DNA of 64,000 nt from the NCBI GenBank assembly GCA_032718475.1, contig JAUCBJ010001692.1:1-64000 (forward strand), read 5' to 3'. The translations under genes and the position numbers were made by a program. Numbering within the stretch: the stretch's first letter is position 1; every line of letters begins with the position of its first letter. Source of the DNA: Nemertoderma westbladi (lineage: Eukaryota > Animalia > Xenacoelomorpha). Positions 4,401 to 39,267 of this stretch are shown one piece after another. The notes under the pieces were generated by a model. The model was not told the origin of the DNA. It saw nothing but the letters and a program-made list of their open reading frames with translations, and made no database searches.

Positions 4401-5039
4401 GCGCTGGTTCAACCCCCGGTGACGCGCTTTCTCATTTTTTCCTCTTCTGAACAAACCCATAATATTACAGCTTTAGTGAATTTCGAATTAATTGACTTAA
4501 ATTGAAAGAATTAATTGACATTCGTAGATTGATATTCGCTGATATGAGTTTGCAGAAATTTGATCTAAGTGAATTCAACTATGACACAAAAAATGGAATA
4601 ACTATTCCGTATTTACTCGAATAAGAGCCCCCCCCCCCCCCCCCCCCGCCCTCGAATAAACTCCCCCTCGAATTAACGCCCCCTTTACCATCCAATTATA
4701 CAGTAGCAACTTAAACGACTTCTCCGAATAAACGCCCTGCCGTTTAAAAATATTACAATGTGGGGCGTTAACATTGTTGAGAGTTTACTGATTGTTAAGA
4801 TTGAAGGTAAATGTAGTAGGGTGTTGGTACCGCAGTAATAGGCTGTGTGTAATAAAGATAATCCTGGTTTTATTTCAATTATTTCATTTGTTTAATGGTA
4901 ATAATAATAATAAAATTTTTATATAGCGCTAAATTTACGTCTATAGTACACTAAAGCGCCTAGGACTAAGTACAGAAAATGTAAGCTTTAAAAAAAGTGT
5001 TAATTAAAATGAGCTTAAAATGGTGAAAAGTGGCATATG

Positions 5040-6176: not shown

Positions 6177-7838
6177 GAATACTCAACTTAATTATTCTCA
6201 GTGGGTCACTAGTAAAAAGATCTTCACACCCGTCTACTATATCAAATCTTGATTTTTGGTCGCTGAGCTTTCATTTAATCGGACATGTTGACATCTATTG
6301 GTGAGGAAGGATTTGAAACAATTAACTTGTTTTCTTGAATTTAACAACATTCTTTATTAGGGTATTTAAATTCAAAATGCTGAAAATCTAGAACATAAGC
6401 ATAAACCCCCCCACTCGAACTACACAATTTGGAACTTATACGCCTTTCCTGTATCAACGCCCCCCTCAAATAAATGCCTCCCCAATTTGCAATTTATAAA
6501 CTTAAACGTCCATCCTCTTATTCGAATAAATACGGTAATTAAGATATTTAATACTGTATGATGACTGAAGTGATTGTTTGAACAGACATTAATTTAATGC
6601 AATAATTTTTCTCATCCGTTTAAATCACCCATAATGTCCTTTTATTTTTACTTTTTATGTCCGCCGGTAATTTACGGTTAGGTTCCATGCTACTGGTTTC
6701 TCTACTGCTGTTCTCTTTAGGATCCATCAGTACTGGTATTAGTATATCTGTATTTTGCAGTATTGCTGTATTGTATGTAGGTATAAAGCCTATGCCTTAA
6801 AAATAAATATACTGTATACTACATTACAGCATTAGGTACTGACTCACTGATTCTGTGATATGTACTGTTGTAAATATGATAGGCCTAAATTGTGATAAAG
6901 GAATATGATAAAGGTAATATATTAACTACGGTAATTTCAGAATTTTACTACCGGCACCAGTACTGCTGTAGGCCTACTCGCCGGACTGGGTAAAAAACTT
7001 GCCTACTCACCAGTATGTAAGCCACGACTTCCGGATCTAATCCCGGCATTCGCGTTACCCTAGGGTATCACCTACGCTATCTCTCCCAGCATGGCCTATA
7101 GTATGTTCACTATGACCTAAAGTATGTGGTATGTCCTGCAGTCTGAATGTGGTCCTCTGTACCGAAGTTTAATCTTCTCGAATATTCTGAGAACTCCTCC
7201 CCGCGACTACCATATCGTCGTTCAGCAGTTACTGCATTAACCCCCTCAACCGGGTATACATATCATCCTGCATTCTTTTACCGACTCTCTCTCTCTCTCG
7301 GTCCTCTCTAATACTCCGATCAGCTAACTCTGCTCTTTTCTTGCATCTTGTTCTTTACGCTCGTTCACTTATCTTGCCTCTCGTTCTTTATGCTCATTCA
7401 CTTCCCTCGCAACCCTTTCTCTATACTCGTCTGCTTCGGAAGCAGGACAATTCGGTCCGGGCAATTCGGTCCGGACAATTCGGTCCCGGACAATTCGGTC
7501 CCGGACAATTCGGTCCCGAACAATTCGGTCCCGGACAATTCGGTCCCATTAATTTTGTGTTTTGGGACCGAATTGTCCGGGACCAAATTTAATCGGTACT
7601 ATAAATGGTGAATGTTCTAGAACCTTAATATATATTATTATATGGTTGCTAGTGTTTTTTTTTACTAGCTAGTATTTTTTTGAAAATAAAAAAAATTTTA
7701 CTTTTTTTGTTAACATTATTAGTTATGGTAGCTATGGTGTTTTTATGGAGCTTGTGAATTATTTACTAGCTAGGAATAGTATGTATGTAAAATGTTTAAA
7801 ACTGATTTTTTTTATATATTGCGTATGTATACTGTATG

Positions 7839-9809: not shown

Positions 9810-12800
9810 TGTGTTGTTAGTTGGTTAACAAGCCTAAATTATTATCCTACATAATAGCTGGATCTCATTCAGGGACTGTTATAATATCATCAATATTTTT
9901 GGTAATTAATATAATCAGCAACAGTTTAGGCCTAATTCTGAAATATCAATGTTTTCACAAGTGTTTTTATAATTTCAAGGAAATACTACCTAGTAAAAAA
10001 AACACTAGCTACACCTTAATAAATAATATATAATAATGTTCTCGAACACTTACCAATAACAAAAATAAAAAAACATACAGTATTTTTAAAATTTCAAAAA
10101 ATTATAGCAACTAACACTAGCTACCATAAAAGTATCTCTACTAATGTTCTAGAACATTCACCAATATCAAAAAAGCACTAAAAAGTTGCTATCAGGAACC
10201 GGAAAATTCGGTCCCGGACAATTCGGTCCTAGGACAATTCGGTCCTAGGACAATTCGATCCTAGGACAATTCGGTCCTAGGTCAATTCGGTCCCGGACAA
10301 TTTGGTCCCGGACAATTCGGTCCTAGGACAATTCGGTCCTAGGACAATTCGGTCCTAGGTCAATTCGGTCCCGGACAATTCGGTCCCGGACAATTCGGTC
10401 CCATTTATTTAGTGTTTTGGGACCGAATTGTCCGGGACCGAATTGTCCTACATCCGTCTGCTTCCCTAGCAGCCCTCTCTCTATACTCTCGCCACCTGCT
10501 CGGCTCTTTCTTTACATTCACTCGCTAACTCCCTTTCCCTTTCTAACAACGCAGTCCCCTCATCCAACTGTCTCTCTAACTCCTTTTGGTCCAACGCAAC
10601 TATGTCTAACTAACGCCAGATCTATTTCTAACACCCTTCTTTCTTTGGGGATGTACACTATATACTGTACGGCATTATCCCCGATCGCCACAATTCAAAC
10701 AGTTCTGTGGCGAATTCTCTCGCCCTCTCATTCGCCAACTCGCCCTGCCTTAATCGGGCTAAATAGTGAAAGTGTTTATTGCACTCACCGAGTCTGCGGT
10801 TTAACTTGGGTTCATATATCTTTCCTCCTTTCTTGGCGTCGTTGAGGATTACACCATACCATCTCCCTTAATACACCAATGGAATGCTCAGTAAACTCGT
10901 TGTATAGTAGCTCAGTGTGGGATTTTCTTAGTCCGGTATTCATTTTAAGTAACCACATTATTATATACTCGGATACATCTCTATATAGTTCCCAATTTTC
11001 ATTTAAATGGGGGGGGGGGGGGGGGGGTGGGGTAACCCCCCCCCCCCCTCACCCCCTGAATACAATTTCATATCTTTTTGCATCTACAGCTGAATTTAAT
11101 GGGGATTGCAGACCTGAAAACCGCTTAGAAAGCCCCCTTTTAGTTTTTGAGGTATCGTGGAATATATGTCTCACAATCTGTCTGTGAAAATGTAAGATAG
11201 ACAACCGGCGGACGGCAGACTTCAAGACATCCTCGCCGTTCTATCATCCCCGTCAACCGACGGAGAAAGTTCTCATACAGACTCATCCCGAAGATTCCAA
11301 CAAATATTAAAACTAACATCTGAAGTTATATCAGCGACCCCGAAAACCCCTGTAAATATAATTTAAGCTCGGTGGTCGTGGTATGCATCCTTCCAACTAT
11401 CCCATTTACTATTAACCAACCAGACCCCATACTGGCAATTTTGGGGGGAAGGTTTGAACTTGAAAGTATTTATCTCTGAATGACATATTTTCACACGAAA
11501 AATACTACCGTTTTTTGTAATTTTTTATTTATATTAAAGGTAATTTCATAAGCTTAAATAAATTCCGGCTAGTTTTCTTGATTACATAATATTTCCAATA
11601 TTGCAAATGATCAGAAATAGAAAATTAAAACACAAAAAGTGGCCGAAAATGAACATGCTGTTTCAAAAAATGTGGTATCGAAAAATACCCCAACCCCCCC
11701 CCCCCCCCCCTTGGGGGGTATTTTTCCCTCACCCTCACAGGCTACTGTCGCCGGCAAACTAACTACAGCCTTCTAAACAACGTACATTATTGATCGGTTG
11801 TGTAGGAACCAGCCCAGGCTTTCCTACTCCGAGGGTTTAAAACAACAGGAAAAACAACAATGGGGAAACAAATGTTCCTGCCCAAGCGTTAAATAACCGG
11901 GAAAATAACTCAATAATAGGGTAATAAGTGTGTTATTCCCCATTACCTTCACTCATCTACGGGTAATTTATTGATTAGGCTTCAACATTTTCTAAAAGGG
12001 TTTTGTTTGGGGGAGTTGATTAAAAATGGGGCTTTGCACGTAATCCCTGGCCTAACGCCCGAATAAAAGTTTAACTTTTTTTATTTATTTTTCATTTATT
12101 GTTTTGGTTAGAATAACTTGCCATTGTAAACAGCTCATTTCCCTTAATTTAACATTGAGACGAAATATGAATTCGCCGAGATGGGATTTGCGCCAAAAAA
12201 CGGCAAAAAACTAGCATATGTTCTAGAAGGTAATCTTTTTTTATGTGTACCCATGACCATATTTTTTTTACTATAGCTAGTTTTTGCTACTTTATTTTAG
12301 AACTATTCTATTTCATGTTAGCTATTATTAGGTAAAAAAATTATGTTCTAGAACAAATATTGTTTGTTCTAGAACATTTTTATATAAAAAAAATTAATTA
12401 AAAATTTATTATTATGTGTAATAAATTGTTTATTTATCTACAAACATTAAAAAATACATATTATCAGGCTAGCTAGTGATTTTCCAAATTAGCTAATTTT
12501 CCAAATTATTTAAAAAAAAATCAAATAAAAATATTTCTTAAAAATTGTTAATTATGTGTAATAAATTAATTATTTGTTTTATATTATTTTAGATTACTTT
12601 GCATAAGAATTGTTACTAAATTATGAAAATAATTAAATATCGAAGCACAAAATGATGATTACTGAACAAAAGTTATGTTATGTTACATGGGATCTAAGTC
12701 GTTCACTCTCAGTTTCTATGCGGTCTCGTCAGCACTCATCGGGGTCTCTTTTAGTTTGTTAATGGCAGCGAGTTTATCTTCCGCTGTCGTCCCATTGGTT

Positions 12801-12849: not shown

Positions 12850-15800
12850 GGGCCTCTGATCCCCGCACCATCACCAAACCCCAAGCCCCGCCAACTGCGT
12901 CATCCACCCCGGATGCATAGGGAGCTAGACCGCACCAACGCAAACTGGAGCCGGCGGCGAATTCCTCCGAGGATGCATCCTAGTCCTCTCTCTCGCATTC
13001 CTTCTCTCCTGCTAACCAGTGACTCAGCGAGGTGACGGATCAGAATCTGCGTCTCATCGCACCAGACCCCATCTGTTGTTCCGGCGAGGGGGGTGAATTC
13101 CATCCGTCGGGCTTCGCAGATCGAGCGGTAGTGTTCCTTCTTTACATGGCAGCGAGCTTCAAGGATTGACGTGGTGGACCGGTTGGTCTGTGTATATGAT
13201 GTGGCGTCAGCGTTAATTAACACAACATCAAAAGACGCCACACGTTGGTTTGACCAGATACCCCGAGCCACCAGATCTGCCCGAACACCTCCAACTTCAA
13301 GGCCCTCACGATCGGTATGACCCCGGGAGAGTGTCACTTCTCGCTCCACACAGGAAGGACCAACCACCTCAGCCATTAGCTGGCCAAAGACTTCGCGAAC
13401 CTCGTCGTGTCGTTTGATCACAAGCCCTCCGGTTTTACAGCTCAAGGCATGGGAGGTTGTAAAGACACCCCCTTACCATTTGGCCACATTTGTTGTTGTC
13501 AACTCTTTTGACGTTTATCTGTCCGAAACTGAAACTCCTCGATCAATTTATGATTATAATAAATTTACTAAAGATAAATTCTTATCTGACATAAATAATC
13601 CTTCAAATTGGACATATAATGATGACGCTATTTTGAAAGAAGAAAAATTCCAAGTTTTTTACAACAATTTTAATTTAATTTGTGCCAACCATTTGCCGAA
13701 AAAAACAATAAACCCGAAATTAATTCCGAAAAAACCATGGATGACAACTAACTTGGTCAAATGTGTAAGGAGGAAAAATAAACTATACACTGCTTTCATC
13801 TCAAACCCGTCGGATACAAATCTTTCACAATATAAAACCTACCGAAACACTCTCACAAAAATTATGCGTAATGCCCAAAAAAGTTATTACGAAAATGAGT
13901 TTCTGAAAAATCAAAACAATAGCAAAAAAACCTGGAAAACAATAAATACGGCACTACAAAAAGATCCAAAACATTATCGTCCCCCGTGAAAATCAAGATA
14001 GATTCAATAGATTCAACTACAACTGATAAATCTATTATTGCTAATATATTAAATAAACACTTTGCATCGATTGGGCCGCAATTAGCGAGTAAAATACCAA
14101 AATCACAAAGGCAACCAACTCGTTATGTAAAAAATAATAAATTTAATTCTTTCTCACTCATAGAACCCAGTGAAACTGAAATAATATATTTTTTGTTAGA
14201 TATCGACAAAAATGTCTCAACTTTTGACGAGTTTCCTGTCTTATTGGTCAAATTAGCTGCCCACAGCCTTGCCCCTAACCTAACTTATCTCATTAACCTT
14301 TCAATTAAAAATGGATTCTACCCAGATGCTCTAAAAAAGGCTAAAATAATACCAGTTTTCAAATCCGGAGATCCAACCGATAAAAACAATTACCGCCCGA
14401 TATCAATATTACCCTTATTCACAAAGATATATGAACGTGTAGTCAATTCCCAATTACTGACCTTCTTAAACAAATACGACCTGTTATCACCATGTCAACA
14501 CGGATTTCGTAAACACATAACGACAACGGACGCTATTCTTACTGTTACGGAACAACTACAGGAAACACTTGACAACGGTAGCTCTGCATGTTTAATATCA
14601 GTAGACTTAAAGAAAGCCTTCGACACCCTACTGTACCACATGACATACTGTACTACTGAAAAAATTAGATTGTTACGGGATACGGGGACTTCCATTGCAA
14701 CTTAAAGGCAGCTTCTTACATAACCGCTCTCATATTGTCTCTATTGATGGTATTACCTCAGAACCAGCTTTGGCCCCTTGCGGTACCCCACAGGGGGCTA
14801 TATTAAGTCCCATTTTGTTTCTTATGTACATAAACGACTTACCGCTCTGCACAAAACTTTTCACCACACTCTTTGCAGACGACACAACTTTACTCTATTG
14901 CCATAGCAATACTGACACACTAATCTCGACAGTCAATACGGAACTCTCTAAATTAGACAATTGGCTCATTGACAATAAATTATCCCTAAACCTTAAAAAC
15001 ACTGAATATATAATCTTTAACAACTCTAGGAACTATATAACACCCAACATCACTATTAGATCCACTAATCTTACGGAAGCTACCGCCACTAAGTTTTTAG
15101 GTATATATATTGATAATAAAATTAACTGGTCGACTCATTGTGAATACATACTCTCTAAAATATCCAAATTATCTGGTATTTTCTTCAAATTGCGACACAT
15201 TTTACCTCTACACATTATGAGAACCCTGTACTTTGCACTAGTTCACCCTCACATACTGTACGGAATTTTAATGTGGGGAAATAGCTACAACTATAACACG
15301 TCGAAAATAAAAGTAAAAATAAATAAGATAATCAGAGCAATAACATTTAGCCATTACCAAGCGCATGCAGCACCTATTTATAAATCTCTACAAATCCTCT
15401 CACTAGAAAAATTATTTGACCTAGAAGTAGCTAAATTTATGTACGACATTAACAAACATAAGAAAACTGAAACCATGCAAAAAATATTCCGTCACACAAG
15501 TACAATACACAAATATTCCACGCCCTCTGCTTCTACACAAAAGTTCTTTGTCCCTCGTGTCCGCTTACAACTTTCCCAAAATTCTATAAAATATACAGGA
15601 CCTAAAATTTGGAATGATTTACCCTTAGAACTTAAAAACTCACTATCTAAAAATGCCCTAGCAAATAAATTAACAAAACGTTTTCTTGATACCTTGTCTT
15701 GAAGCTGGTAAAGATTCCACAAATAAAGTATCCACTTTGCGACTTAGGCATACTGTCCATACTCAAGTTAGACCTATACTGTATTTATCTATGTTTGACC

Positions 15801-17570
15801 TATATACAATAAAACATCTCCAATATATCCAATGTGCAGTATATTCCTGATGGGTCCCACTAGCTAGCAACTGTTTCATAAACATGTTTTTTTACATTCC
15901 GAGCACCTAAATTATCTCCTTTCGAATCTATCGAGTAACACCCCCCCCCCCCCCCCCGCCTCTCCTGATCAGTCCACTAAACCTTTCACAGTCATGCACC
16001 AGTGGAAACCTATACTAGCTTTGCTACAGCTGACCACTGGCTGCACCCCAACACCCCACGGCTACGGCATATTATCATTAGGCCTATCATATCACCCACA
16101 TTCATGAATAAATACTGATCAACCTTAAACATTTTATGGTGACCTTTGGTGTTGGGTTTTTGCAATATACTGTATAACGATATCGAAAGGCGAACTTCCG
16201 AAATTAAAGGCCCGGGCCTATCCCGGATTGAAAATTGAAATTGAAATTGACCCCCACACCCTTCACATTTGTCTGGAGTAGCTGGTGGGGTGAGGCCGTA
16301 ACGAAGGGCTAACCCATCTCTGAACTCGTCGGGACTCAGATCGGTGTGGTCCAGAACTGATGGCTGTGCTGTCAACCACCCCCCGATCTTGTATTTAACT
16401 GCACGCTCGACAGTCCTCCTCCGAGCCACAGGCAGCGATGAGACCACAGACTCCCGTTGCTGTTTATAGGCCTCTTCCTGATGGATGCGACTTTCCTGCA
16501 ATACACTTCGGAGGTGTGCAGCATGATTTGCTGTATTTAGAGGGCTTTGGGTGCAGATTGCTTCAGTAACAAGAGCTGACGCGCATACCGAGCCAGTCCG
16601 GGCAGGACCGACTCTCTTAAGGGGGTCCCGCAGACCAATCCCACCATGGCGTACGGGTAGGAGGGCAAGATCCCTCTCGATGACACTGTGTGCAGTACCA
16701 AACAAGGACGGGACAAAGTCCTGAATCAGTGCTGTGCGGATGGGGGCAATATCTTCTTCCACTGTTGGGGCAACTCTTAAAAGAAAATCCCATTCAGCTT
16801 GCACGCACCGGGACATCCCGGTGTGGGCGGCTTGGGGGAAGTCCTTGGCAACCTCTGAAAGTTTTTTGATGCTAGATACCCAGCCCTCTACTTTGCCTGC
16901 GACAAACTCCCTGCGTGCTGACTCATCCCCAATGAAGCCGCCCAGATAACGGTGGCCTAAAACCACCTGGACCCCACTGGGACCAAACAGCGTTTTGGCT
17001 GCCTCTTCAAGACCGGGTTTAATTATTAGGATGGATTTTGTAGGTTCTGGGTTATACCCTATATGAGGTCCCTGTCTGAGTAGCTCGGTCCACCACTCAA
17101 AGACTCCTGTGAGTGACCCTGCTGAAGAGGAGTCGTCAGCATACCATGATTGGCGTTGTGATGGGGCCGGTGTTGGTAATGTCAGGTTTGTTTGCGGGGT
17201 GGTTTGTTGTGGAGGGTGTGAAGGTTGGGCCAGAACCGGGACTGCACGGAGGTTGCGAATAAGTGGTAGTGTTGCACAGCCATACCCAAGCATAGCCAGA
17301 GGATCACCCTGGGTGAATCCCTCCTGACTCCAGAGTGGTGCGTCACTGCCTAGCATATAGAGGGCTGCATGGCCGTTATATGCATTATAGAGAAACTTAG
17401 ATGCCCTGTGCCAGTATTGCCGACAATTCCAAAGTGCTACTGGGCGACTTATTGCATTAAATGCATTCTTTGCATCAACTAATAGTAGCGCCTCGGTTGA
17501 ATCTTCTTCGAATATGGCATTCATCGCATGGACTGCTCCCTCAATACCTGCCTTTGTGCCTGCACATAGT
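12850..17570 (-). mobile_element. CRE-clade-like non-LTR retrotransposon (RT + CCHC + restriction-like endonuclease), 5'-truncated and split by a LINE
   Basis: The RT half (ORF 16010-17524) has LLVDAKNAFN, QGDPLAM and WYADD. The RLE half (12900-13445) has RHD..RADL..FDV..KKEHY..FTPLAGTTDG. Removing the insert restores the knuckle CEGCGG|VFTTSHALSC. Confidence 0.8.
13473..16249 (+). mobile_element. CR1-group (L2/Crack/Daphne-like) LINE, 5'-truncated, frameshifted ORF2
   Basis: Three consecutive ORFs with KPWMT, NYRPISIL, QHGFR, DLKKAFD, GTPQGAILSPILF, LFADD and KFLG; 3' tail of (attgaa)n; ACCCCC duplicated at both junctions. Confidence 0.9.
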
Positions 17571-17668
17571 GTAATAAATAGTTTATTTATCTATAAACAT
17601 TTAACATTTTTTTTTTAAAAATACTAATTATCAGGCTAGCTAGTGATTTTCCAAGTTAGCTACAGTAT

Positions 17669-18550
17669 TGTTCGCGCTTTTAGACCTTTAGCAGTTTAAC
17701 CTGCCAAATTTAGGTGTCTTCTAGGTTATAAATCGACTTTAGCCTATGACAAGTATTTGATACACATAAAACTACATTAGCCGAAGCCAGCCTATGCGCG
17801 ACCATTCACCCACTGGATTTACCCGGGAGACTGGATTCAGAAGCTCTGACCTTATTGCGGTGTAGGCCTACTATATTATTCGATTGATCGTTAATATATA
17901 ATCTCTGACAAATATTATTCACTTTCGGGAAATATTAACAGTTCCTTTAGGACGTGGCGCTCTAAGTATGTAAACAGAATTATGACTTACACTAAACACA
18001 ACGGGATGGCTATTGATTCACGTATAAAGCGCATTCTTTAGGAGATGCTTTGTTATCTATCACACTCATGCACACTACTGCACAATGCTGCACACCGATC
18101 TGCCGACCTTCACTAATTTTAATCATATATAAGGAGAACAGCCAATGACACATGTAGGGTCTATGAAATAGCATTCAATTCACTCCAAAACCACTATAAT
18201 GTAAGTCGCAATTGCTATATGTAACCGGTCTCTCTAACCTTCAGTATATCAAGAAGATTGGGGTTTTCTGATTATTTATCGATATTCTCCAAATATAACA
18301 ATATTCCATCAACTGATACAATTAATAACCGACAGTAAATAGCAGTAAAAATAATGCGGTGTTTGTATGTGACAATATGAGCAGTTTGTGATATGCAGAT
18401 TTGGTTTGCCAGTTTTGTTAACAGTTATACGTTTCTATGATCAAAGCCGTTCTAATGTTTGGCTAAAGTCTGAAACACAGAATAATTCCAAAGCCGGTGT
18501 TCTGGGCTTAGAAAGATACACACTGACTGAATTGTGTGAGTTTCTGTATG
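17669..18550 (-). repeat. Element B 3' LTR, distal part (continues at 31205-31513)
   Basis: Near-identical to 44834-45745. Confidence 0.95.
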
Positions 18551-19721
18551 TGTAAAAGCTTTTGCGTCATTAACCGGTTATTTTCCCTTAAAGTACTCTG
18601 TAGTTGGTTTACCAGGCATAAAAAGGCTGTGTCCTTGCTGTACTGGTGTTTTAGAGGACATAAAAGTCATTTCTTCTGTATTTGTACTTTAGAGGACATA
18701 ATCCGCAATCTCGTGACGCGATAAGCTAGATACTCTTGAAAACAGTGTCGCTACCATGACGACGGCTAACAGCTGATATTGCCACGTCGACATTTCTTTG
18801 TTTCTTTGTTCTCTCGTGGTTCGGTTGACCAATCAGAGCGTTTTTGTCTCTGTGTTGGAGGTATATACAGAACTCAGTAGTTCAGTGTTATGTTTTTTGC
18901 CCAGAGCCTAAGAACATCGGCTTTTGGCACCTCCGTATATCAGCATTCTTTAGCTTTACATTAGTAGGCTTAATTATAGAACGTATATCTGTTATCATAC
19001 AAATCAAACTACTTACAAACCAATTCAATGCTGTTCAGTGTTATTGTTTATATCTTACTAATATTACTGCTTTTGCTGTCGGTTGTTCATTATATTGGTT
19101 GATGAAATATTATATCGGAATACTGATCAATAGTCAGACACCCCACCTTCTTGATATACTAAAGGTTAGAGAGACCGGTTACAGATAAACGATTGCGACC
19201 TATGTTGAGTGGTTTGAAGTGAATCTAATGCTATTTCATATGCCCAACATAAATTGTCTGTTGCTCTCTTTATACGTGACCAAATTTAGTGAAGGTCGGC
19301 AGATTAGTGTGCAGTATTGTGCAGCATTGTGTATGATTGTAACTGATAACAAAGCATCTCCTAAAGAATGCGCCATATACGTAAATCTATAGCCTTTTCG
19401 TTGTTTCTAGTTTAAGTCATAACTCTGTTTACATATTTAGAGCGCCACGTCCTAAAGGAACTGTTAATATTTCCCGAAAGTGAATAATATTTGTCAGAGA
19501 TTATATTACGATCAGTCGAATAATACGGTAGGCTTACACCATCAATCATTAAGCTCCGAACTCAGTCTCCCGGGTATATCCAACGGGTGAATGATTGCGC
19601 ATAGACTGGCTTCGGCTAATGTAGTGTATCAAATACTCGTCATAAGCTAAAGAATATATATCATCCAAAAGACATCCTAATTTGGCAGGTTAAACTGTCA
19701 AAGGTCTTAAAAGCGCAAACA
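18551..19721 (+). repeat. Element A 5' LTR
   Basis: tgtaaaagc...gcgcaaaca; CCAAT motif accaatcagagcg at about 18829 is conserved in all LTRs of the family here. Confidence 0.95.
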
Positions 19722-19733
19722 ATAACAGATATA
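19722..19733 (+). promoter_or_regulatory. Non-tRNA primer-binding site of A, complementary to LTR-internal 18984-18995
   Basis: ATAACAGATATA directly follows the LTR CA, with no TGG. It is the exact reverse complement of TATATCTGTTAT in the LTR. Confidence 0.65.
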
Positions 19734-20002
19734 GCTTCTGGATTGCGGTGTAAGCAATCTAGTCGAAAGTACCGGTCGACCGGTAACCAGTAGGCCTGAC
19801 TGCCTGATCATCCGGACCGGTACCTACAACAGTACAGGTACAGCAGTATTATTCGATTTGATTATTATATGCCGGTAGGTCTTAATAATTAATCGGGGAC
19901 GCCTGGTTTTTATTGGGATTTTACTTAGGCCTATTTCTGTCAGTTTTATTTATTTGTAGGCCAGTATTGAGCAGAAGGCGTGTAAGCCTGCTCAGATTGT
20001 GC

Positions 20003-20575
20003 AGATAATTTGTAGGCTTGACTGTTGGCAAACTGTTGATTAGGTTTGAACGGATTGCAGTGCATGTAGAGTGTATGTCCGATAAAGAACGGTTAGGAAG
20101 TAGGGGCAGCCATAGCTGTAAGGTAAACCCCCATCTAAAGAATAAGTCGTACTACTGGGTTAGAACGCATACTACTTAACCATTTCGGAGTCTGCATGTC
20201 CTGTGGTTTATTTAGGCTTGATAGTAGTCTGCCATCGTTTAGTCTGTACTTTGTTTGTGTAGTCTGTACGGGTAGCGTATAATTTTATTTAGATAATTTG
20301 TAGGCTGGATAGTTGTCTGGCTGCTGTTGGGTTTGAGGAAATTTCGGTGTGTGTAAAGCATCTGTCCGATAAAGAACGGTTAGGAAGTAGGGGCAGCCAT
20401 AGCTGTAAGGTAAACCCCCATTTAAAGAATAAGTCTTACTACTGGGTTAGAACGCATACTACTTAACCATTTCGGAGTCTGCATATACCGTAGTTTGTTT
20501 AGGCTTGATAGTAGTCTGTCAGTATTTGGTCTGCATTTTGTTTGAGTAGTTTGTACGCGTAGCGTAATATTTATT
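20003..20575 (+). repeat. 288-bp tandem duplication in the 5' leader of A
   Basis: Units start with agataatttgtaggct at 20003 and 20291; B has a single copy (about 44265-44550). Confidence 0.85.
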
Positions 20576-21910
20576 ATTCAGAGTTTATGCTATTATTCGC
20601 AACATTCATATCCCCAAGTTTATTCCTACAGTAATTGTGTTTGTTATACATACCGTTATAGTTAAACTAACCCCGGTACTACATCAGGGCTGCTCGGCGT
20701 AGGTAAAGACTGGTGATTTTGTGCACCGGTCACTCTGGCAGATACCGTGGTTCTTTTAGCTGTTCAAGTATTTTTAACTACTGATTATTTGTTGTACAAG
20801 TACTTGTACCTAATTTAGGGTTTAGTGTACAGTGCTTTCCGAAAGCAATTAGTGTATAGGCAGTGTATTTGTGTTGTAAAGTGGTTAATAGGCACGTTGG
20901 TTCTGGTAGACCGCGGTAATTAACTTCTAGGTAGGGACACTCCGTGATACATAACGTAGTACCTATAGCGATACGGTTATAGGTCGTCAGGCGGTGGTAT
21001 TTTCCTATCTGGACAACGCAGTATATTTACTACTACTTATTATTTTCAAATACCGTAGTAACCTGTCCGTTGTAATAACCAGATATTCTAACCCTTTGTT
21101 AGGCTGGTTAGTAGACTTCTTGTAAAATTACCCTAAAAATTTGTATTTGTGTATTTGTAATTAAATTTTTGTGTTTACTTAGAGATTGTAATCTCAACCC
21201 GAATTGTACGTAATTTGTAGTATTAAGTAACTTAGGTAAATTAGAATTATTTGTTTTAGTGTCTAACAAGTAGCACTCCACTGAGAGCGCACAGCTTATG
21301 TGTAGTGACTCCCCCAGAAATAATAACATTTATTTCAACATTGACAAAAACCCATTTCAACGGGTATATATATATTATAAATCAACTCAAACGATTTATA
21401 AATAGTAGGCCTGCCATACAACAATTAGGTCTCAATATCAGTTGGACTACTGCTTAAATAACGGTAATAAAGTAAGTTAAAGTAACCAAGTAACCATTAA
21501 AATTCAGAAATTCAATTATTTAAAATAATTGATATACCGGTATTTACAATATGCTTATTACCTTTATTTTCATAAACTTAAGCTGAAATCATACCGGTAT
21601 TCTGTAATTAATTCTAGTTAATAATTATACTTATATATACTATAAGTGTAAACTGCATACCGGTATCCACGATAGGCCTATTATATATTTATATATATTT
21701 GTGCTAAAATTATATACCGGTATTCTGTGAAAAACCTAGTCTGTAATAATACTTATATATACCCTAAGTATACCGGTATTCTAATATTATATATCACGCT
21801 ACACTGAGTAGCAGTATCGGTAATTAATTACTAGGCTAGCAGTTAACACTGAATTACTAGACTTGCTTTGACTGTAATATAGCAGTAGGCATTCAACTGT
21901 GCAAACAAAC

Positions 21911-24900
21911 ATGTCTGATACTAAGCAGAACATGTCAGACAGTTTATTAGATGTAACTATCTGCGACTCAGATAAGGGTGTAGAACCGTCTACACCTAAG
22001 TTCACCTCCCACTGTGAGGAAGGTCATCCCTCCAGTAGTAATAACAGAACCGAGGCTGGTCCAACATCGTAGGTCTATCATAGGCACTCGAGCTCAGGTC
22101 AAGCGGGACCAAGAAGCAGCGGAACAGCAACAACTTGCGAGCCAAGAACTTATTTCTCAGCGGCCCAACAGCTCCAGTAGTGAGGATACTGTAGAGCTGA
22201 CACCCGAGCGCGGAGCAAGGATGACGGATGCGGTTTATTCGGATCCCCTTCTCATCCTTCCTGCAGCCGTACTCACTAGGTTATTGATCGCTGTAGAAGA
22301 ACACCAGATCGATTGGGCGAGAAGTAAGCGATCAACTAAAGATAGTTATGAGGGATACACAAGGGAAGAACTGAAGTCTATGGTCGAGTCGCAATGGAAC
22401 TTCCCCGGACCCGGACTCCCGTTTGATTTATCAGAAGCTGCCTGGGAAGACATACACCGGATGGGAGTAGCCAAGGAAACCATCGATCCAGCTGTGTGGA
22501 AGAGGTCCGCAGCCGGATACGCACAGGGATTCTTCAGCTCTATGGAGCGAGTAAAAGAACAACTGTTTCAACAACCTCAAGGACCTCAAGAGCAGGGACA
22601 ACTGCTTTATCAAGTTAGAGAAAGAATTCTGCAAATTAGGCTAATCTTATCGGCCTTCGAGGAGGCTTCTAAAAGAAGACAAGACACGTCGTTGCAAGTT
22701 GCCGTAAAGACTTGGTTTCAACGGGTGAGTCGCCAGGTTCAAGGAACAGCTCAGTGGAAAGCTCAGCTGGAGGAGCGCTCAACCCATGGAGAATCAACAG
22801 ACGCTACTTTTTCCCAAGTGGAAAGTGAAGCGACGGCAGAGAAACCGCATAAGAGGGATGCCATTGACATCTATCTGTCAGACTATCAACGTTTTTTAGG
22901 TGATGAAGAGTTGAGGAGAAGGTTAGAGGGGCTTAGCCCTAATAGTGAAGGAGCCCAGCGTGTGTTGGACGCAATCGATGTGGATAGGTTAGCTGCGAAC
23001 CAAGCTAAATTCAATGAAAGCATCCGCATCGCTAAGGTTCAAGAAGAACAAGTAAAGAAAAAACGTATAGAAGATAGAAAGAAAGCGGCAGAGGCAGCGG
23101 CAGAGGCAAAAGCGGCAGCGGCAGAGGCAAAAGCGGCAGCTGCAGCAGTAGAAGCCGAAAGAAAGGCGGCCGAAGCGGAAAGAAAGGTGGCAGCTGCAGC
23201 AGTAGAAGCCGAAAGAAAGGCGGCCGAAGCGGAAAGAAAAATAGCAGTGGCAGAAGCAGAACGGAGGGCATCTGAAGAGACAACCCAACTAGAGTTGGAA
23301 AATCTTCAAGAGAGACAAGACAACTTTAATAAACAGTTAACAGCTAGTAATATGCAGATGATGAATCGATCTACTCCCAAAAGACAGGGATATACATCAT
23401 CTGAGGAAGGCGATACCACCGATACTGAAGGCAAAGGAAATAGATCTCACTTAAGCAGACGTAAAAGAACATTCCAACGTCAGAAATTGCCTGATTTGCC
23501 TCCAGCTGTTAGAAGGCAACTAAATAACACCAACTTAGGTAGTACAGAACCCACAGACCAAATAATTACAATAGAGAGACTCCCTACTATAGTAGATGAG
23601 CCTGAAATAGTTAGGCCTGTTCCCGAAGCCACCCTTTCGGTCGTAGAGACACCTTTACTCCCTGAACCTACCTCTCAATTCCCGTTGCACAGCACTAAGC
23701 TACCTGTGCCCAGCAGAACAGCCCATGAGACAGTTCATGCCCTGGACTCCGAGCGAAATATTCATGATTTGTCGCCCGTTGTCCCTCGTCCGCCCGCTAC
23801 AACGTTGGCGGATCCCGTTTCGGCGGTTGATTGGGTGGACGAGAGACGGCGGGGGATGGACATTCTCCTCGAAAAGATGGAGGAGAATCGAGTACGCTCC
23901 TCCCAACAGGTCCGAGAGTTAGAAGGGACTGTTCAACAGTTAAAGGGAACCGTAAAGGAAAGTAGGTTAGAGTTGCAAGAAGTACAGCAAAATATCGCGC
24001 TAGAACGTGATAAATTAGTAAATTTACAAAAGGGTATACCACCACCCCTTGTAACAATGTGTCAACCTGTTAGGTCTGAAGTATCTCATGCGCAAGGTGT
24101 GGAGCCTACACGCATCTATACTGCTAGCGAAGTAGAAACTCCTATAGTGAACCCTATTAAGGGTAATTATAGACCTGTTGATAATGATATTCTCTATAGA
24201 CCGGATCATAATCCGAGAAATTTATATACCGATAACTCGATATTAAATAACACGATGGCCCAAGAAAGTTTTACGCGTCAAATGGCTAGAACCGAAGCCC
24301 GGCAAGCGGTAAAGGTGGGAGAGATCGTCAAGTTCAATGGAGATGAGATGAAATGGTTACCTTTTAATGAATATTACAAAGATAACATACAGAACTCTGT
24401 GCTATCTAATGGAGAGAAACTTAGATTCCTCATCGAGTGCTTGGAAGGATCTCCCAAGTTAATGGCGTTAAAGTTTATTGGACATCCTGACGGATTAAGA
24501 CAAGTTTGGGATACACTAAAATCAGGTATGGTAATAGGAATAACATAGCTGGGTATTTGTATGCAAAGTTAGTAGCGCCCCGAAAGTTTATTAGCAGCGG
24601 GATTATAGAGTTTTCCGACGAGATTCAGGAGATCTGTAGACAATTAGATTGGCTAGGTAAGTCTCATGAGTATCAGAGTGCTATGGTTATTAGAGCAGTG
24701 GCTTCTACTTTACCGAAGGGTGGAGTAGGTACACGCTGGGATAAGAAAGTGTTATATATGATGGAACAACAACGACGAGACCCTACCATGGCTGATCTCA
24801 TGTCATTCCTAGATGGAGAAGTGAAATTACAGCTCCTGAAACTGTCCAGAGAGAAGACACCGGAAAACAAGGTAAGTGAAAAACCCGTCGCTAGGAGAAA

Positions 24901-27636
24901 GGTAACACCAGTGTGTTATACAGATGATGGCGAAAGCCAGACTTCTCAAGGAGAAGATAGCGGGAAAGATACTGACAGATCTTATTACGTAAATAAAATG
25001 CCTAAAGATCAGGTAAGTAAATTCAAGTCTCGAACAAATGACAGGAGAGAACAGGTAAGAAAAACTCCTACGTCTCCCAAGAGAATTCAGGTGAGAAAGC
25101 CCGAAGAAAAAGCAAGTGTACACAATGTTACTCAGAGTAAAGTAAGTAACATCAAACCGAAATGTGCGCTATGTGATGGGACCCATCGCTTAAATATGTG
25201 TGATGAATTTCTAAAGAAATCATTAACTGAGAGACGTGAAGTCATGTGGGACAAGCGGTTGTGCTATAATTGCCTCAGACAAGGACACCAACGGCGAACC
25301 TGTTACTCTGACACAAGATGTGCCAAGTGCGGTGCGAAACATCATATCTTGTTGCACACTGAATTCGAGCGAAATAGTCCGAGTCAGGTAAGTGATTCCG
25401 AACTACATGTCCAATTCAGTGATGTGAACGACACTGATCAATCTAAGATGGAAGGATTCTATACGGACGAGTTCTCCGACGAAAACGAATCCTGTTACAT
25501 GATAAATACCACAGTGTATCGAGCACTCATTTATGAAAAAGATACAGACATTGACCTCGCTCTAACTACTTCTGATCGACAACCATCTTGGAAAGCGCCA
25601 ACTTCCAATGTAGGGATTAGAGAATTTCCTGTGGTACAGGTAAGGGTCCATGGACCAAAAAGGAGTTATGTAGTGAACGCCCTCCTTGACTCCGGTAGTA
25701 CAGGAACATTCATCGACAAAGAGCTAGCCGAAGACATATTCGCTGGACAACCCAAGTTCCGAACTAAGCTAAACATGTCAGGAATTATGCAAGTTTGGAA
25801 ATCCACAGTAACCGTGGATTATTATGTAGGTGCGTTGTCCGCCCCCCAGGACGAACTAGGAGAACATAGCATAAGGTCAGTGAAAATGGTGGCTATAAAG
25901 AACTTCGCTACTACTCAAGCAGACCTTTATAATTGGGGCGAGGATGAGAGCATCCAACATCTTAAGATACCTCGATTCCAGACAGATTATCCTGGAGTGC
26001 AAATACTCATCGGTCAAAATGCGCATGAAGCGCTCGAGACATTAGAGAAACGACCTGCTCAACCGCAACCTCTACAAGTTTATGCGGGAAGAACTAGAGT
26101 AGGTTGGTACTTTACTGGCCCTTCCCGTAGAACTCTCATGGAAAGATTACCGAAAGACCAGGTATATCAAGCACGAGAATGGGAAGTTGAGAACAGTGAG
26201 TTCGACGATCCAACTGAGGGAACTCCATACTCCTCAGACAACGACGATATACATCAACTCTTCGATGAGGAGAATGCCATCGATCTCCTTAAGGAAAGCG
26301 AGACTTGGCAAAATCAAGTGAACTTATGTCAACTCCTTCTCCCATCCGAGCGAGACGACTATAACGACGAGCTTAATGACGTCATTGAACGTTATAATGC
26401 CAAGACTCGGGATGAACACGCCGTGAGATTCTTTACTCAAGAGGTCGTAGAGCCCAACTCCTACGATAAGGCCCTATCGGTGGAGGAAGAAAGAGCCAAG
26501 CAGATCCAAGCGACAACTACTCGTTTCTTAAAGATCAAGATAGGTATGAGATCGGACTTCCTTTCCGAAAGCGAGAACCAAAGTTTATTAACAACAGACC
26601 TTTGGCGGAGAAAAGAATTGCTCAACTACATCGACGCCTTACGGCAAATTCTTCAGCTAAAGAAATGTATAAAACACAGTTGAAGAAGTTTATTAGCAAG
26701 GGATATGCGGAGCTAGTACCGGAAGAAACCCCTATAACTGAGAGAACGTATTACTTAACTCACCATTACGTTCCCAAACCCGGTAAACCCCATGAAATAC
26801 GAGTGGTGTTTGACGGTTCCGCCCTTTATATGGGCCAATCTCTTAATTCTGAATTGTTACCCGGACCCAACTTACTCCAATCCTTGTTGGGAATACTACT
26901 AAGATTAAGACAATACTCCATTGCTTTCGCCTCAGATATAGAAGGCATGTTCTTACAAGTCAAAGCGCTGGATAGGGATGGAGATAGCCTACGATTTTTG
27001 TGGTGGCCTGAAGGAGACCTCAATAAGAAACCGGTGGAGTACTGGATGACCATCCAAGCTTTTGGGATAATCTCGAGCCCTTCAAACGCCTGTTCCGTGG
27101 TACGCACCACTGCGGATGACAACCGAGACACCTTCTCTAAAGAAGTGATCGACAATATCAAACGAGACATCTACATGGACGATAATCTGAAGTCCCTTCC
27201 ATCAGTCGAAGAAGCCATTGAGGTCGCTAAAGGAACGGTAGAGTGCTTAAAAAGAGGTGGATTTCGATTAACTAAATTCACCAGCAACTCCCGTGAGTTT
27301 CTGGAGTCGATCCTGGTAGAAGATCGAGGAGTAAAAGACCTAGATCTAATAAAGGATGATCTCCCAGAAACTAAGACCCTTGGTTTGAAATGGGACACAG
27401 AAAGAGACATCCTGTTTTTCCAATTAAAACAGCGAGATAATCCAGTTCGGACTAAACGGATTTGTTTAAGTATCCTGAGCACTTATTTCGATCCATTGGG
27501 ATTTATTAGCCCAGTTATATTGATTGCTCGGAGTTTAGTACAACAAATGTGGCTTGAAAACCACTCATGGGACGATCCACTTAAGGGAGAATTATTAAAG
27601 AAATGGATGAAATGGGAAGATTCTCTGTTATTGTGA
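21911..27636 (+). pseudogene. Element A gag-protease-RT polyprotein, frameshifted and truncated after RT
   Basis: Probable ATG at 21911; frameshifts near 22010, 24520 and 26530 relative to B; BEL gag KFNGDEMKWLPF, triple knuckle CALCDGTH..CYNCLRQGH..CAKCGAKHH, protease LLDSGS, RT RVVFDGS/DIEGMF/YMDD. Confidence 0.92.
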
Positions 27637-29006
27637 TGTGTTATCTCTCTGATGTGTTATTCGAGGAGGAAAGAATACAACGATATGGAGATGTGGAAAC
27701 ATATACCACACAATATTTAAAGTATAAAGACCTGCCTAATGCTAGCGAATGTGCTACCTTGTGGCATCCTGTGGGAATGACAATCGAAAACGCCACTAAA
27801 GAGTGGAACGAAACTCTTAACGTTATCGAGATGTATGGAGTTGTCACTTACGATAACGAAGGTAGCGTTCCGGTTGGAGAACTTGGAACTACGCGGATGA
27901 TACACATACGAGGACTCGCTGGTTCTACCCACGTATTTACTCGAGCATGTTCCGACGTTATTGATTATTCTTTTGAAACTCTTACTGAGACACAAAAGAA
28001 ACTCCGACATGGACAATTTGAACTCGCGCAGCGTTACGTCACCGACACCGAGCGCAAGCCGGCCATGGGTATCGATGGATCGATGTTACCCCAACCCGTG
28101 CTCGAGATGCTGTTTAACGAAGGAATCCTTAAAATCGGCTCAGCTGTTTATGGAGACCTACAGAACGACTTTCGGAATATGGAGAACATTCCATACCCCT
28201 TCGTTGATACTCAGCTGATTGCTCCTTGGGCAGAAGGCCGAGGTTTCTTCCGCACTATGTATGCCAATACACCCAGCGGAATTACCAAAGTACAACGAAC
28301 CTCCATCGGACATCTTGCCTTTCAAGAATACGGATGGAATTTCAAGGTTGGAAATCCTATAAATTACCAACAAGTATACGGAGATCATTATTCTTGTTTA
28401 TACTTTGATGGACCATTGACCGCACCTGGAGCCGTGTATAGCTTTATGAGTGTTCCACTTCGTCCCTCCTTAGCTATATACACGATCTTTGAAAACGCAG
28501 CACTTGCCGGTTGGCTAGCCGATGTGTGCAGTCGTACCATACGCGCCCATCCCTTAATACTTGGAACCAAACTCGCCAAGTTAGATGAACACAATAAATT
28601 CATCCGCTTTGAATGTTTCAGGCGCTTTCTGACTCCGTTCCGTAACGTTGATAGTCAGTTCAAGGACCGCGCTCTGACCAAACTCAGCCTGAGAGACTCA
28701 GCGGCGGAGAAGCTAAACAGCGCGGGATTTGCCCTTTTTCAGGACGTTTGTATACAGAACTTGCACTCATCTGTTATACAAAGACCCCGAATACCCACGG
28801 GTTATTCTGTCGTCGAAGTTCAGACAGTGGGTCCACTTGCGGAGACAGCCGCACCTACCTCAGCTATGCAATTGGAAGACGAACCAATATGCTTAGAAGC
28901 TGAAGCGATTCAGCCTACAGCGCCCCGGAGCAGCGATAATGACTACATCTTAAGAGTGGTATCAAGGTCCACAATATCTCACCACATACGATTATCGACA
29001 CGCTAA
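27603..29006 (+). CDS. Accessory ORF with a DEDDy 3'-5' exonuclease-like (WRN/EXD/Mut-7-like) domain; N-terminus lost by deletion
   Basis: ExoI VVTYDNEG (D codon at 27852); LPQPVLEMLFNEGILKIGSAVYGD (ExoII); FVDT; SIGHLA; ExoIII-like PLRPSLAIYTIFE (about 28455-28493). Confidence 0.65.
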   Translation: MDEMGRFSVIVMCYLSDVLFEEERIQRYGDVETYTTQYLKYKDLPNASECATLWHPVGMTIENATKEWNETLNVIEMYGVVTYDNEGSVPVGELGTTRMIHIRGLAGSTHVFTRACSDVIDYSFETLTETQKKLRHGQFELAQRYVTDTERKPAMGIDGSMLPQPVLEMLFNEGILKIGSAVYGDLQNDFRNMENIPYPFVDTQLIAPWAEGRGFFRTMYANTPSGITKVQRTSIGHLAFQEYGWNFKVGNPINYQQVYGDHYSCLYFDGPLTAPGAVYSFMSVPLRPSLAIYTIFENAALAGWLADVCSRTIRAHPLILGTKLAKLDEHNKFIRFECFRRFLTPFRNVDSQFKDRALTKLSLRDSAAEKLNSAGFALFQDVCIQNLHSSVIQRPRIPTGYSVVEVQTVGPLAETAAPTSAMQLEDEPICLEAEAIQPTAPRSSDNDYILRVVSRSTISHHIRLSTR

Positions 29007-29955
29007 CTATGTTTCTCGAAAACGTTGTCGATTATGCGCATCGAGAGACCATTTCACCCCTATGGACTCAGACGTACCCTGCTCCTATTTCCACGAACAA
29101 CCAATGATGGAGATATATTGTGCGTATTGCAGACTTAATAACTCTCATATTTTTGCAGTCTGCCCCCAATTTATGACTCAATGCCACCACTGTCAACTTA
29201 AAGGACATGCCAGTTATAATTGCCCCTTTAATCACGATTTAGAGAGCGTAGACGAAATGATTACCCTGCGATACATTCGAGCTTGGGAAGCGAACGCGGA
29301 TTTACATTGTGAGTCCCGTCATCGATACTACCCTGGACGCTCTTACGAGGGAGTTTACGCATTCCATCCTTATTTATTAGCGTCTGTGGAACAAAAAACA
29401 CGCATACCGAGTTACGAGCTAATGAAGCGTGTTGGTGAGTGTATTTCCACTAAATTTGTTAGAAGATACCTTAGGAACGTCAATCCTAACGATATTACTT
29501 CATACCATTTGATCAATTATATCCGTCAAGACCCTGAGTATGGCGATTTATTTATCAACTCGCACCCTGAGTTAAAGGAAGTATCTCGACGGCCCTACGA
29601 ATATCGAGCCCGAGAACGCGAGCTGGAAAGAACTATTAAACCAAGGAAGTTTCTCACCACCCCTGGTCCGCCTACCGCCATTACCCAGACAACCCGTCAA
29701 GGACCCGTAGGAGCTGCTGTCCTGAGGCGCGCCCTAAAGGCTGTTAGACCTCGCTCCACGGAAGTTGATATCGATCAACCAGGTACCTCGACCGGCGGAT
29801 ACACCGATCGCAATCCGAAACCTTCTGATGCAATTGTATTGCACCCTTCACCCAGGAGTTACAGCCCTCCTAGTAAAGTGGCTCGCCCCAAAGAGAAAAG
29901 GACTCTTACTAGCCTCAAAAAACTGCGTAAACGCCGTCCGCGTAAGAAAGACTAA
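28939..29955 (+). CDS. Accessory ORF with three CCHC zinc-knuckle-like motifs and a basic C-terminal NLS-like tail
   Basis: The frame is open upstream of the ATG at 29062 back to a TAA at 28951, with an ATG at 28939. Motifs: CRLC-x4-H-x9-C, CAYC-x5-H-x4-C, CHHC-x4-H-x4-C. It ends KKLRKRRPRKKD. Confidence 0.7.
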
Positions 29956-30033: not shown

Positions 30034-31204
30034 TGTAAAAGCTTTTGCGTCATTAACCGGTTATTTTCCCTTAAAGTACTCTGTAGTTGGTTTACCAGGC
30101 ATAAAAAGGCTGTGTCCTTGCTGTACTGGTGTTTTAGAGGACATAAAAGTCATTTCTTCTGTATTTGTACTTTAGAGGACATAATCCGCAATCTCGTGAC
30201 GCGATAAGCTAGATACTCTTGAAAACAGTGTCGCTACCATGACGACGGCTAACAGCTGATATTGCCACGTCGACATTTCTTTGTTTCTTTGTTCTCTCGT
30301 GGTTCGGTTGACCAATCAGAGCGTTTTTGTCTCTGTGTTGGAGGTATATACAGAACTCAGTAGTTCAGTGTTATGTTTTTTGCCCAGAGCCTAAGAACAT
30401 CGGCTTTTGGCACCTCCGTATATCAGCATTCTTTAGCTTTACATTAGTAGGCTTAATTATAGAACGTATATCTGTTATCATACAAATCAAACTACTTACA
30501 AACCAATTCAATGCTGTTCAGTGTTTTTGTTTATATCTTACTAATATTACTGCTTTTGCTGTCGGTTGTTCATTATATTGGTTGATGAAATATTATATCG
30601 GAATACTGATCAATAGTCAGACACCCCACCTTCTTGATATACTAAAGGTTAGAGAGACCGGTTACAGATAAACGATTGCGACCTATGTTGAGTGGTTTGA
30701 AGTGAATCTAATGCTATTTCATATGCCCAACATAAATTGTCTGTTGCTCTCTTTATACGTGACCAAATTTAGTGAAGGTCGGCAGATTAGTGTGCAGTAT
30801 TGTGCAGCATTGTGTATGATTGTAACTGATAACAAAGCATCTCCTAAAGAATGCGCCATATACGTAAATCTATAGCCTTTTCGTTGTGTCTAGTTTAAGT
30901 CATAACTCTGTTTACATATTTAGAGCGCCACGTCCTAAAGGAACTGTTAATATTTCCCGAAAGTGAATAATATTTGTCAGAGATTATATTACGATCAGTC
31001 GAATAATACGGTAGGCTTACACCATCAATCATTAAGCTCCGAACTCAGTCTCCCGGGTATATCCAACGGGTGAATGATTGCGCATAGACTGGCTTCGGCT
31101 AATGTAGTGTATCAAATACTCGTCATAAGCTAAAGAATATATATCATCCAAAAGACATCCTAATTTGGCAGGTTAAACTGTCAAAGGTCTTAAAAGCGCA
31201 AACA
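30034..31204 (+). repeat. Element A 3' LTR
   Basis: Same length as the 5' LTR; only two substitutions noticed by eye. Confidence 0.95.
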
Positions 31205-31513
31205 GTATGCACTGTCCAACACAAAATGAAAATCGCTCTGATTGGTTGAGCCGAACAAAGAAAGCCAAAAGCTACACGTCGACATCTCAGCTGATAGATG
31301 TCGTCATCTGAAATACACTGTATTAAGAGTATTCTGGTGCATTGCGGCATAAAATTGCTAGTTATGTCCGCTAAAGTACACATACAGAAGAAATGGCTTT
31401 TTATGTCCACTAAAACACCTGTACAGTAAGGAAACGGCTTTTTATGTCCGCTAAAACACCTACAGAGTACTTTGCGGGGAAAATAACCAGCTAATTCCGC
31501 AAAAGCCTTTACA
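31205..31513 (-). repeat. Element B 3' LTR, proximal (U3) part
   Basis: Matches 45741-45900 plus 47968-48100; abuts the PPT ccgctcccagaaaatggg. Confidence 0.95.
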
Positions 31514-36951: not shown

Positions 36952-37071
36952 GAGTAAAGCATCGGTCCAATAGATAGTTTTCTCCAGTGGATAGTCGATC
37001 TGTTCTGTTACATTCCGGCCGATGGCTGTAGCGTATAGAGCCGCTTTTAACTCCGCTCAAGGAACTTTCAA

Positions 37072-39255: not shown

Positions 39256-39267
39256 TATGGGAAATTC

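Follow-up and report, generated by a model that had tools for sequence, protein, structure and literature searches.

The window, a 64,000-nt stretch of genomic DNA from Nemertoderma westbladi, was compared with itself, which revealed a nested arrangement in which one LTR element on the forward strand (A) is inserted in the 3′ LTR of a second on the reverse strand (B). Pao-type Gag-Pol domains identify A and B as BEL/Pao (Belpaoviridae) retrotransposons, with Pfam matches to Peptidase_A17 in both elements and to DUF1759, Integrase_H2C2, and DUF5641 in B. Structural traits of BEL/Pao elements are likewise present, namely TG...CA LTRs, a purine tract, and target duplication, B having a 5-bp duplication of its own. 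The closest named relatives, from a coral, a sea anemone, a crinoid, a ribbon worm, and a seahorse, are ∼40% identical, and all 78 matches to the named-relative search were BEL/Pao-type polyproteins by Pfam. A solo LTR of the same family (C) is also found in the window. Coordinates of these features, and of those discussed below, are collected in Table 1.

Several further features were noted. The ∼2-kb insertion in the 5′ LTR of B (45904-47963) has terminal inverted repeats at 45929 and 47963, is flanked by TA, and holds an inner 22-nt tandem array at 47314-47767; it resembles a Tc1/mariner-type non-autonomous element. A more diverged fragment of the A/B/C LTR family occupies 52036-52551 (+). 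Arrays of 15-nt units at 7444-7589 and 10186-10459 are inverted copies ∼2.8 kb apart and resemble the subterminal repeats of DNA transposons, and broken RVT_1 frames without LTRs at 13321-15702 (+) probably belong to a non-LTR retrotransposon. Long open frames of 683, 526, and 416 aa (2163-4214, 16010-17590, and 52911-54161, respectively) gave no Pfam match; the first of these contains 24- and 30-nt tandem repeats.

Table 1. Features of elements A, B, and C and of their candidate priming signals, in window coordinates
Feature	Position	Strand	Remarks
A 5′ LTR	18551-19721	+	1171 nt, TG...CA; 2 differences from A 3′ LTR
A 3′ LTR	30034-31204	+	purine-rich tract just before; second copy of self-primer site at 30467-30478
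A target duplication	18546-18550 / 31205-31209		5 bp
A gag-pol region	21984-29955	+	five overlapping frames, frameshift-broken
B 5′ LTR	48100-44834	−	first part interrupted by ∼2-kb insertion (about 45904-47963)
B gag-pol region	34831-42936	−	in pieces; DUF1759, Peptidase_A17, integrase zinc finger, DUF5641
B 3′ LTR	31513-31205 + 18545-17669	−	split by A insertion; copy of B self-primer site at 18428-18419
C, solo LTR, same family as A/B	51577-50409	−	homologous site 51182-51171, two changes, both compensated in masking partner
A primer-binding site	19722-19733	+	adjoins LTR, offset 0, without TGG
A candidate self-primer	18984-18995	+	exact reverse complement of 19722-19733 (12 nt)
A primer-duplex extension	18978-18981	+	pairs with 19736-19739 (4 nt) beyond 2×2 mismatch
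B primer-binding site	44833-44823	−	1 unpaired base, then 10 pairs (offset 1)
B candidate self-primer	45623-45614	−	10-nt complement of 44832-44823
Promoter-like motifs	18829-18868	+	CCAAT box (also B, C) 155 nt and TATA-like word (A only) 122 nt upstream of self-primer site
Upstream helix 1, 5′ strand	18945-18956	+	partner 19644-19655; pair probability A 0.92, B 0.93, C 0.99
Upstream helix 2, 5′ strand	18957-18965	+	partner 19615-19623; pair probability A 0.61, B 0.88, C 0.33
Masking partner of A self-primer site	19344-19351 + 19375-19382	+	pair probability 0.94-0.97 in A
Hairpin after primer-binding site	19738-19762	+	9 pairs; in B one two-sided and one G-U to U-A change

The CCA end of a mature tRNA reads TGG in a primer-binding site. 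The sequence-only reading had described both elements as lacking this motif after the 5′ LTR, and this was confirmed: TGG is absent from the first 17 nt beyond the LTR of A and from the 24 nt read beyond that of B, so the 3′ end of a mature tRNA cannot be the primer. No tRNA gene was found in the window, and 18500-22300 gave no Rfam match at E values up to 1. The same reading had paired the bases following each LTR with a site inside the LTR itself, and its coordinates and letters proved correct for both copies: 12 exact nucleotides in A, resumed for 4 bp after a 2-nt mismatch, and 10 in B. Within the window, the 12-mer of A occurs only at the candidate self-primer and at its copy in the A 3′ LTR (30467). 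The pair 18988:19729 is T-A in A and A-T in B, a two-sided change that bears out the compensatory GAT/GTT difference claimed for the two copies; the first and twelfth pairs are lost in B. Crossed pairing, with the site of A set against the LTR of B and the reverse, reached at most 6 and 8 nt, and the cognate duplexes (−18.7 and −13.4 kcal/mol) were more stable than the crossed ones (−10.8 and −10.9 kcal/mol). As published, a self-primer is recognized in sequence by at least 10 bp of complementarity starting 0-5 bp after the LTR (PMC6317226); with 12 nt at offset 0 and 10 nt at offset 1, A and B lie within this range.

In dinucleotide shuffles, a complement of at least 12 nt from offsets 0-3 was obtained in 4 of 3000 for the LTR of A, and one of at least 10 nt in 25 of 3000 for that of B; none of 10,200 internal positions of A reached 12 nt. 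The helices are short and A+T-rich, and A and B are related and therefore not two independent draws; against these shuffles and the same relation in relatives (see below), chance complementarity in A+T-rich DNA is nevertheless scarcely credible. The A and B copies alone would be thin evidence for self-priming: the two primer-binding sites of the family that were compared show a single compensated pair, and B has lost two pairs. It is the relatives that strengthen the case.

Contigs of three DNA runs from two samples, in which the A/B family is very abundant, were aligned to 18935-19030; their short length does not allow a self-primer site to be matched to the primer-binding site belonging to it. 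A further run, presumed to be RNA, placed no contig on this interval, a result that weighs neither for nor against transcription. Summed contig depth drops ∼tenfold from bin 18995-18998 to bin 18999-19002 (81,121 to 7,967 in run X1, 57,659 to 3,258 in X2, and 44,271 to 4,626 in X3), and the contigs run on into dissimilar A/C-rich tails. Family-wide similarity ends at 18996, i.e. at the 3′ edge of the A site, an indirect measure as contig depth does not equal copy number. Among the 18 of 38 contig rows listed, no joints or loose ends were seen inside 18984-18995. G-poor tails also follow the predicted splice junction of several of the relatives described next.

Relatives were collected with an RT/RNase H alignment search, which gave 79 loci on metagenome contigs (best 80 of 535) with ∼40% RT/RNase H identity. 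Both LTR copies were cleanly ended in 14 loci, and 13 readable relatives were retained once one duplicate had been dropped; L020, L049, L064, and L066 were excluded from this count, their repeat ends not being at CA. TGG was found at the LTR end of none of the 13. Contiguous complements were mostly short in these elements, and each site directly follows a pyrimidine tract and AG. For 12 of the 13, the complement of the post-LTR bases is found where two exons would be joined by removal of a predicted GT-AG intron within the LTR (GTRAG..YAG), taking in the last 4-9 nt before the GTAAG donor and the first 5-11 nt after the acceptor. These junction complements are 10-15 nt long at offsets 0-4, with introns of 67-164 nt, and comprise nine different sequences among the 12 relatives. 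Splicing of the LTR intron is a prediction drawn from these sequences.

Shuffles in the junction search gave 0 of 300 for each relative. When each site was set against the LTRs of other elements, 199 of 210 crossed cells were zero; 8 of the 11 non-zero cells belong to sister elements sharing a site, and the other 3 do not exceed 6 nt. Starting the search at mock points of the leader gave zero in nearly every case. A blind scan at every CA upstream of gag gave matches in 20 of 59 loci on the forward strand versus 1 of 59 on the reverse strand; 14 of the 20 were new, some of them near-copies, and most of the loci missed do not include a complete 5′ LTR. The thirteenth element, L048, and its sister L066, whose LTR end is less certain, have contiguous complements, 10 nt long in the former and 12 nt in the latter, that differ by a two-sided change. 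When the excluded loci were revisited, L064 scored as spliced, L020 was judged spliced by eye, and L066 was contiguous, with L049 and L017 falling in neither class. A junction scan of heads against tails reached at least 10 nt in 126 of 2352 crossed pairs, many between sisters, a high background that leaves the extra spliced assignments of L040, L042, and L055 weak. Among viral contigs, 50 pattern matches were obtained, none of them related. At L029 (1-210 and 7086-7140), where the LTR ends are not delimited, an apparent contiguous 12-nt complement was seen at offset 4.

Because 12 of the 13 relatives carry junction-complementary sites, tRNA-free self-priming is judged to be lineage-wide from these comparisons, and A and B to be its intron-less form. 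The proposal that a BEL/Pao lineage primes without tRNA is upheld by covariation over nine primer-binding sequences, and is corrected in that the trait is not special to the A/B family and that most relatives would have the complement only once a predicted intron has been removed.

A GTRAG donor upstream of the site could be found in neither A nor B, nor could a strict GTRAG junction fit. With relaxed rules, junctions of 11 nt in A and 10 nt in B were obtained, each at offset 1, as would be expected if A and B also splice, by removing a 700-750-nt intron from a GT inside the site to a CAG near the LTR end and so producing the same 10-11-nt complement. The donor of this intron is not GTRAG, its acceptor has no pyrimidine tract, and the GT is missing from solo LTR C; splicing would add nothing to the length of the unspliced match, and only four post-acceptor bases need to fit. 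We regard splicing of this kind in A and B as very improbable. Other splice-like words were recorded in the LTRs. A pyrimidine-rich, acceptor-like stretch ending in CAG lies at 45690-45664 in B, 51250-51222 in C, and, in weaker form, 18930-18946 in A; in B and C it stands 40 nt upstream of the site, without an upstream donor, and is possibly an intron relic or a trans-splicing site. Only one splice-donor-like word is common to all three LTRs. It lies ∼170 nt beyond the site on its downstream side, at 19162-19170 in A and at the corresponding positions of B and C, and is a perfect GTAAG in C. Since the leader to the first long frame exceeds 2 kb, this word might yield an mRNA without the primer-binding site.

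Trees of the RT/RNase H region, built without Sinbad, Dan, and Suzu references, were used to place A and B. A FastTree tree of 158 rows nested them among the spliced elements; IQ-TREE runs on selected sets of 36 and 34 rows did not recover this nesting and left A and B on a long branch at an open fork. A group containing A, B, and all spliced elements has support of 93/98 and excludes Tamy and other insect (Pao-type) elements. In the AU test, holding the spliced group together without A and B was not rejected (p 0.49). L048 and L066 nest inside the spliced elements on starred branches, which indicates intron loss for these two. For A and B, intron loss and ancestral absence would both be compatible with the trees. 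Loss would be easily explained, as reverse transcription of an RNA in which the 3′ R had also been spliced would leave a ready-made primer. The element nearest to A and B in the FastTree tree is L007, whose 3′ LTR (4710-5010) shows a donor-like word, a ∼250-nt A+T-rich stretch, an acceptor, and an A/C-rich tail, as in spliced relatives; the contig does not extend over its primer-binding site.

RNA folding was then considered. In the lowest-energy unconstrained fold of A, the self-primer site is paired inside the LTR and not with the primer-binding site. Comparison of A, B, and C shows three two-sided changes in this inner, masking pairing, and the change of B at 18988 is compensated in both partners, i.e. 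in the primer-binding site and in the inner LTR segment. As the site has a second, better-compensated partner in the LTR, its conservation alone is no proof of priming. When the primer helix is imposed, the energy cost depends on the start chosen and ranges over 0-3.0 kcal/mol for A and 0-8.1 kcal/mol for B, where the upper limit belongs to a nested helix with the start set near 45665. If both strands are opened and the duplex is then formed, the balance is a gain of 4-7 kcal/mol, with no pseudoknot penalty included. In these models, the masked and paired states both appear feasible, and we would hypothesize an RNA switch between them. The LTR RNA is highly structured in other parts too: the pairing of the block upstream of the site with the remaining LTR surpasses that of 299, 291, and 287 out of 300 shuffles in A, B, and C, respectively, with the 3′ strands of the two upstream helices (19615-19655) sitting 66-106 nt before the primer-binding site.

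So structured an RNA, and a site with another partner, would suit a pairing that serves packaging, dimerisation, or translation control only, with a host RNA such as a tRNA fragment as the primer; half-tRNA priming without TGG is known in copia lineages (PMC6317226). A and B differ in mid-site, however, and the nine unrelated post-LTR sequences of the relatives, each fitting its own LTR junction alone at offsets 0-4, cannot be one host RNA. A purely structural role is accordingly rated improbable. Priming in trans, by a separate short LTR-derived RNA from a solo LTR, a 3′ LTR, or the second genome in the particle, is given somewhat more credit and is still considered unlikely. It would draw on the abundance of the family in the DNA runs and on the existence of solo LTRs such as C, and it would avoid the pseudoknot that the primer helix makes in cis if the upstream helices form. 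Each primer-binding site nonetheless tracks its own LTR, as expected for pairing on one molecule, and a shared pool of primers would relax this tracking.

Within self-priming, the position of the transcription start bears on which end of the RNA acts as primer. In the exact Tf1 type, a variant of self-priming from the LTR that differs in the start site, transcription would begin at 18978-18984 and the capped 5′ end would itself be the primer. A start at 18978 places the primer helix in a lowest-energy fold of both A and B at a cost of 0.0 kcal/mol, with a pairing that spans 18 nt (18978-18995), and the TATA box of relative L031, only 36 nt before the donor, would leave a first exon of just a few nucleotides. 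The primer-binding sites of A (19722-19726) and B also begin with the same letters as that of Tf1, ATAAC (PMC11042837); the sites of the relatives do not start this way, so the match is probably coincidence or a cut-site preference. On the other side, conservation of the helices 18945-18965 / 19615-19655 in A, B, and C would require transcription to begin before 18945, in the 3′ copy at any rate. The CCAAT box and TATA-like word likewise lie well upstream of the site (Table 1), and relatives L002 and L061 have TATA boxes ∼140 nt before the donor.

In the Tf1 RNA, LTR sequence lying downstream of the primer takes part in a "pretzel" of three duplexes (PMC10085805). No counterpart was found in A or B: with G-U allowed, the best helices measure 8 and 12 bp in A and 8 and 9 bp in B, lengths that shuffled sequence also gives, and the positions of these helices in the two elements are not homologous. 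The upstream helices and the promoter-like motifs point to a start earlier than 18984, and a Tf1-like primer at the very 5′ end is doubtful; we hold the exact Tf1 type to be a less likely variant, with an internal primer somewhat more likely than a 5′-terminal one. The likeness to Tf1 put forward from the sequence thus stands in part: a site adjoining the LTR does complement the element's own LTR, and the 5′-end primer is put in doubt by the upstream helices, the promoter-like motifs, and the missing pretzel.

Taken as a whole, the sequence comparisons make it likely that in A and B a fragment of the element's own LTR RNA, and not a tRNA, primes reverse transcription. The transcript would begin in the 5′ LTR at a point probably ∼90-120 nt before the site, which would place the site within R. 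Two states are predicted for the site, in keeping with the covariation: masked by the inner LTR segment, or joined, presumably in cis, to the primer-binding site; in A they lie within 0-3 kcal/mol of each other. A cut at 18995/18996, the 3′ edge of the paired site, would then provide the 3′-OH, probably through the element's RNase H; the model for this step is the primer-releasing cut in Tf1 (PMC5341516). Reverse transcriptase would copy ∼730 nt back to the cut and jump to the 3′ R.

A wider picture, to which we give about even chances, is that a broad, mainly aquatic BEL/Pao lineage dropped tRNA priming. In most of its members the host spliceosome would assemble the primer by joining two exons of the LTR, which would leave unspliced RNA and the 3′ LTR copy without one, and the intron-less A and B would hide a ready-made primer in an LTR stem, as an RNA switch, until its handover to the primer-binding site. 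Pre-mRNA splicing would then make the primer of the relatives and make the onset of reverse transcription dependent on the host spliceosome, a connection for which we found no paper. The rule that post-LTR bases complement an LTR junction offers a quick genome-wide test. LTR finders that require a tRNA site would miss or down-rank this lineage.

To our knowledge, self-priming has been proven only for Tf1-type gypsy elements and is predicted for one plant copia lineage. In the literature outside subscription journals, Repbase Reports, and GyDB, no report of self-priming or of a spliced primer in BEL/Pao was found, and the accessible parts of three BEL/Pao clade papers (PMC3118150, PMC6238403, and PMC554778) hold zero occurrences of PBS, primer, and tRNA terms. 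The ICTV profile of Belpaoviridae gives tRNA priming from an 18-nt site for tRNA-Arg or tRNA-Gly (PMC8742986). A and B share with this family (Semotivirus) the Pao-type peptidase, DUF1759, DUF5641, a 5-bp target duplication, and 1.2-kb LTRs, whereas the 18-nt tRNA site is found in neither of them nor in the 13 readable relatives; the site is a descriptive trait, and membership rests on Pol. Self-priming would thus occur in a superfamily otherwise described as tRNA-primed, the splice-built form itself lying outside the window.

Like A and B, Tf1/Tf2 and the Tf1/sushi group of Ty3/gypsy chromoviruses have no tRNA site and an LTR-adjoining site that complements their own LTR RNA (PMC11042837); the Pol of A and B is that of BEL/Pao, without chromovirus ancestry. 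A separate origin in BEL/Pao would mean that tRNA has been dropped repeatedly. Self-priming has been predicted from similar sequence evidence for the plant Ty1/copia TAR lineage (Houba and Osr-1) and for moss Tcn1 chromoviruses, which belong to other superfamilies and hosts and for which the accessible portion of PMC6317226 does not mention an intron through the primer. With the relatives predicted to be primed from a splice junction, A and B share the superfamily, the broad branch, a similar place of the site in the LTR, and a G-poor stretch thereafter. A and B differ from them in having no upstream GTRAG donor, in the length of the LTR remainder (726-780 versus 93-289 nt), and in the offset (0-1 versus mostly 2-4), and so provide a natural comparison in which the same function would be served without an intron.
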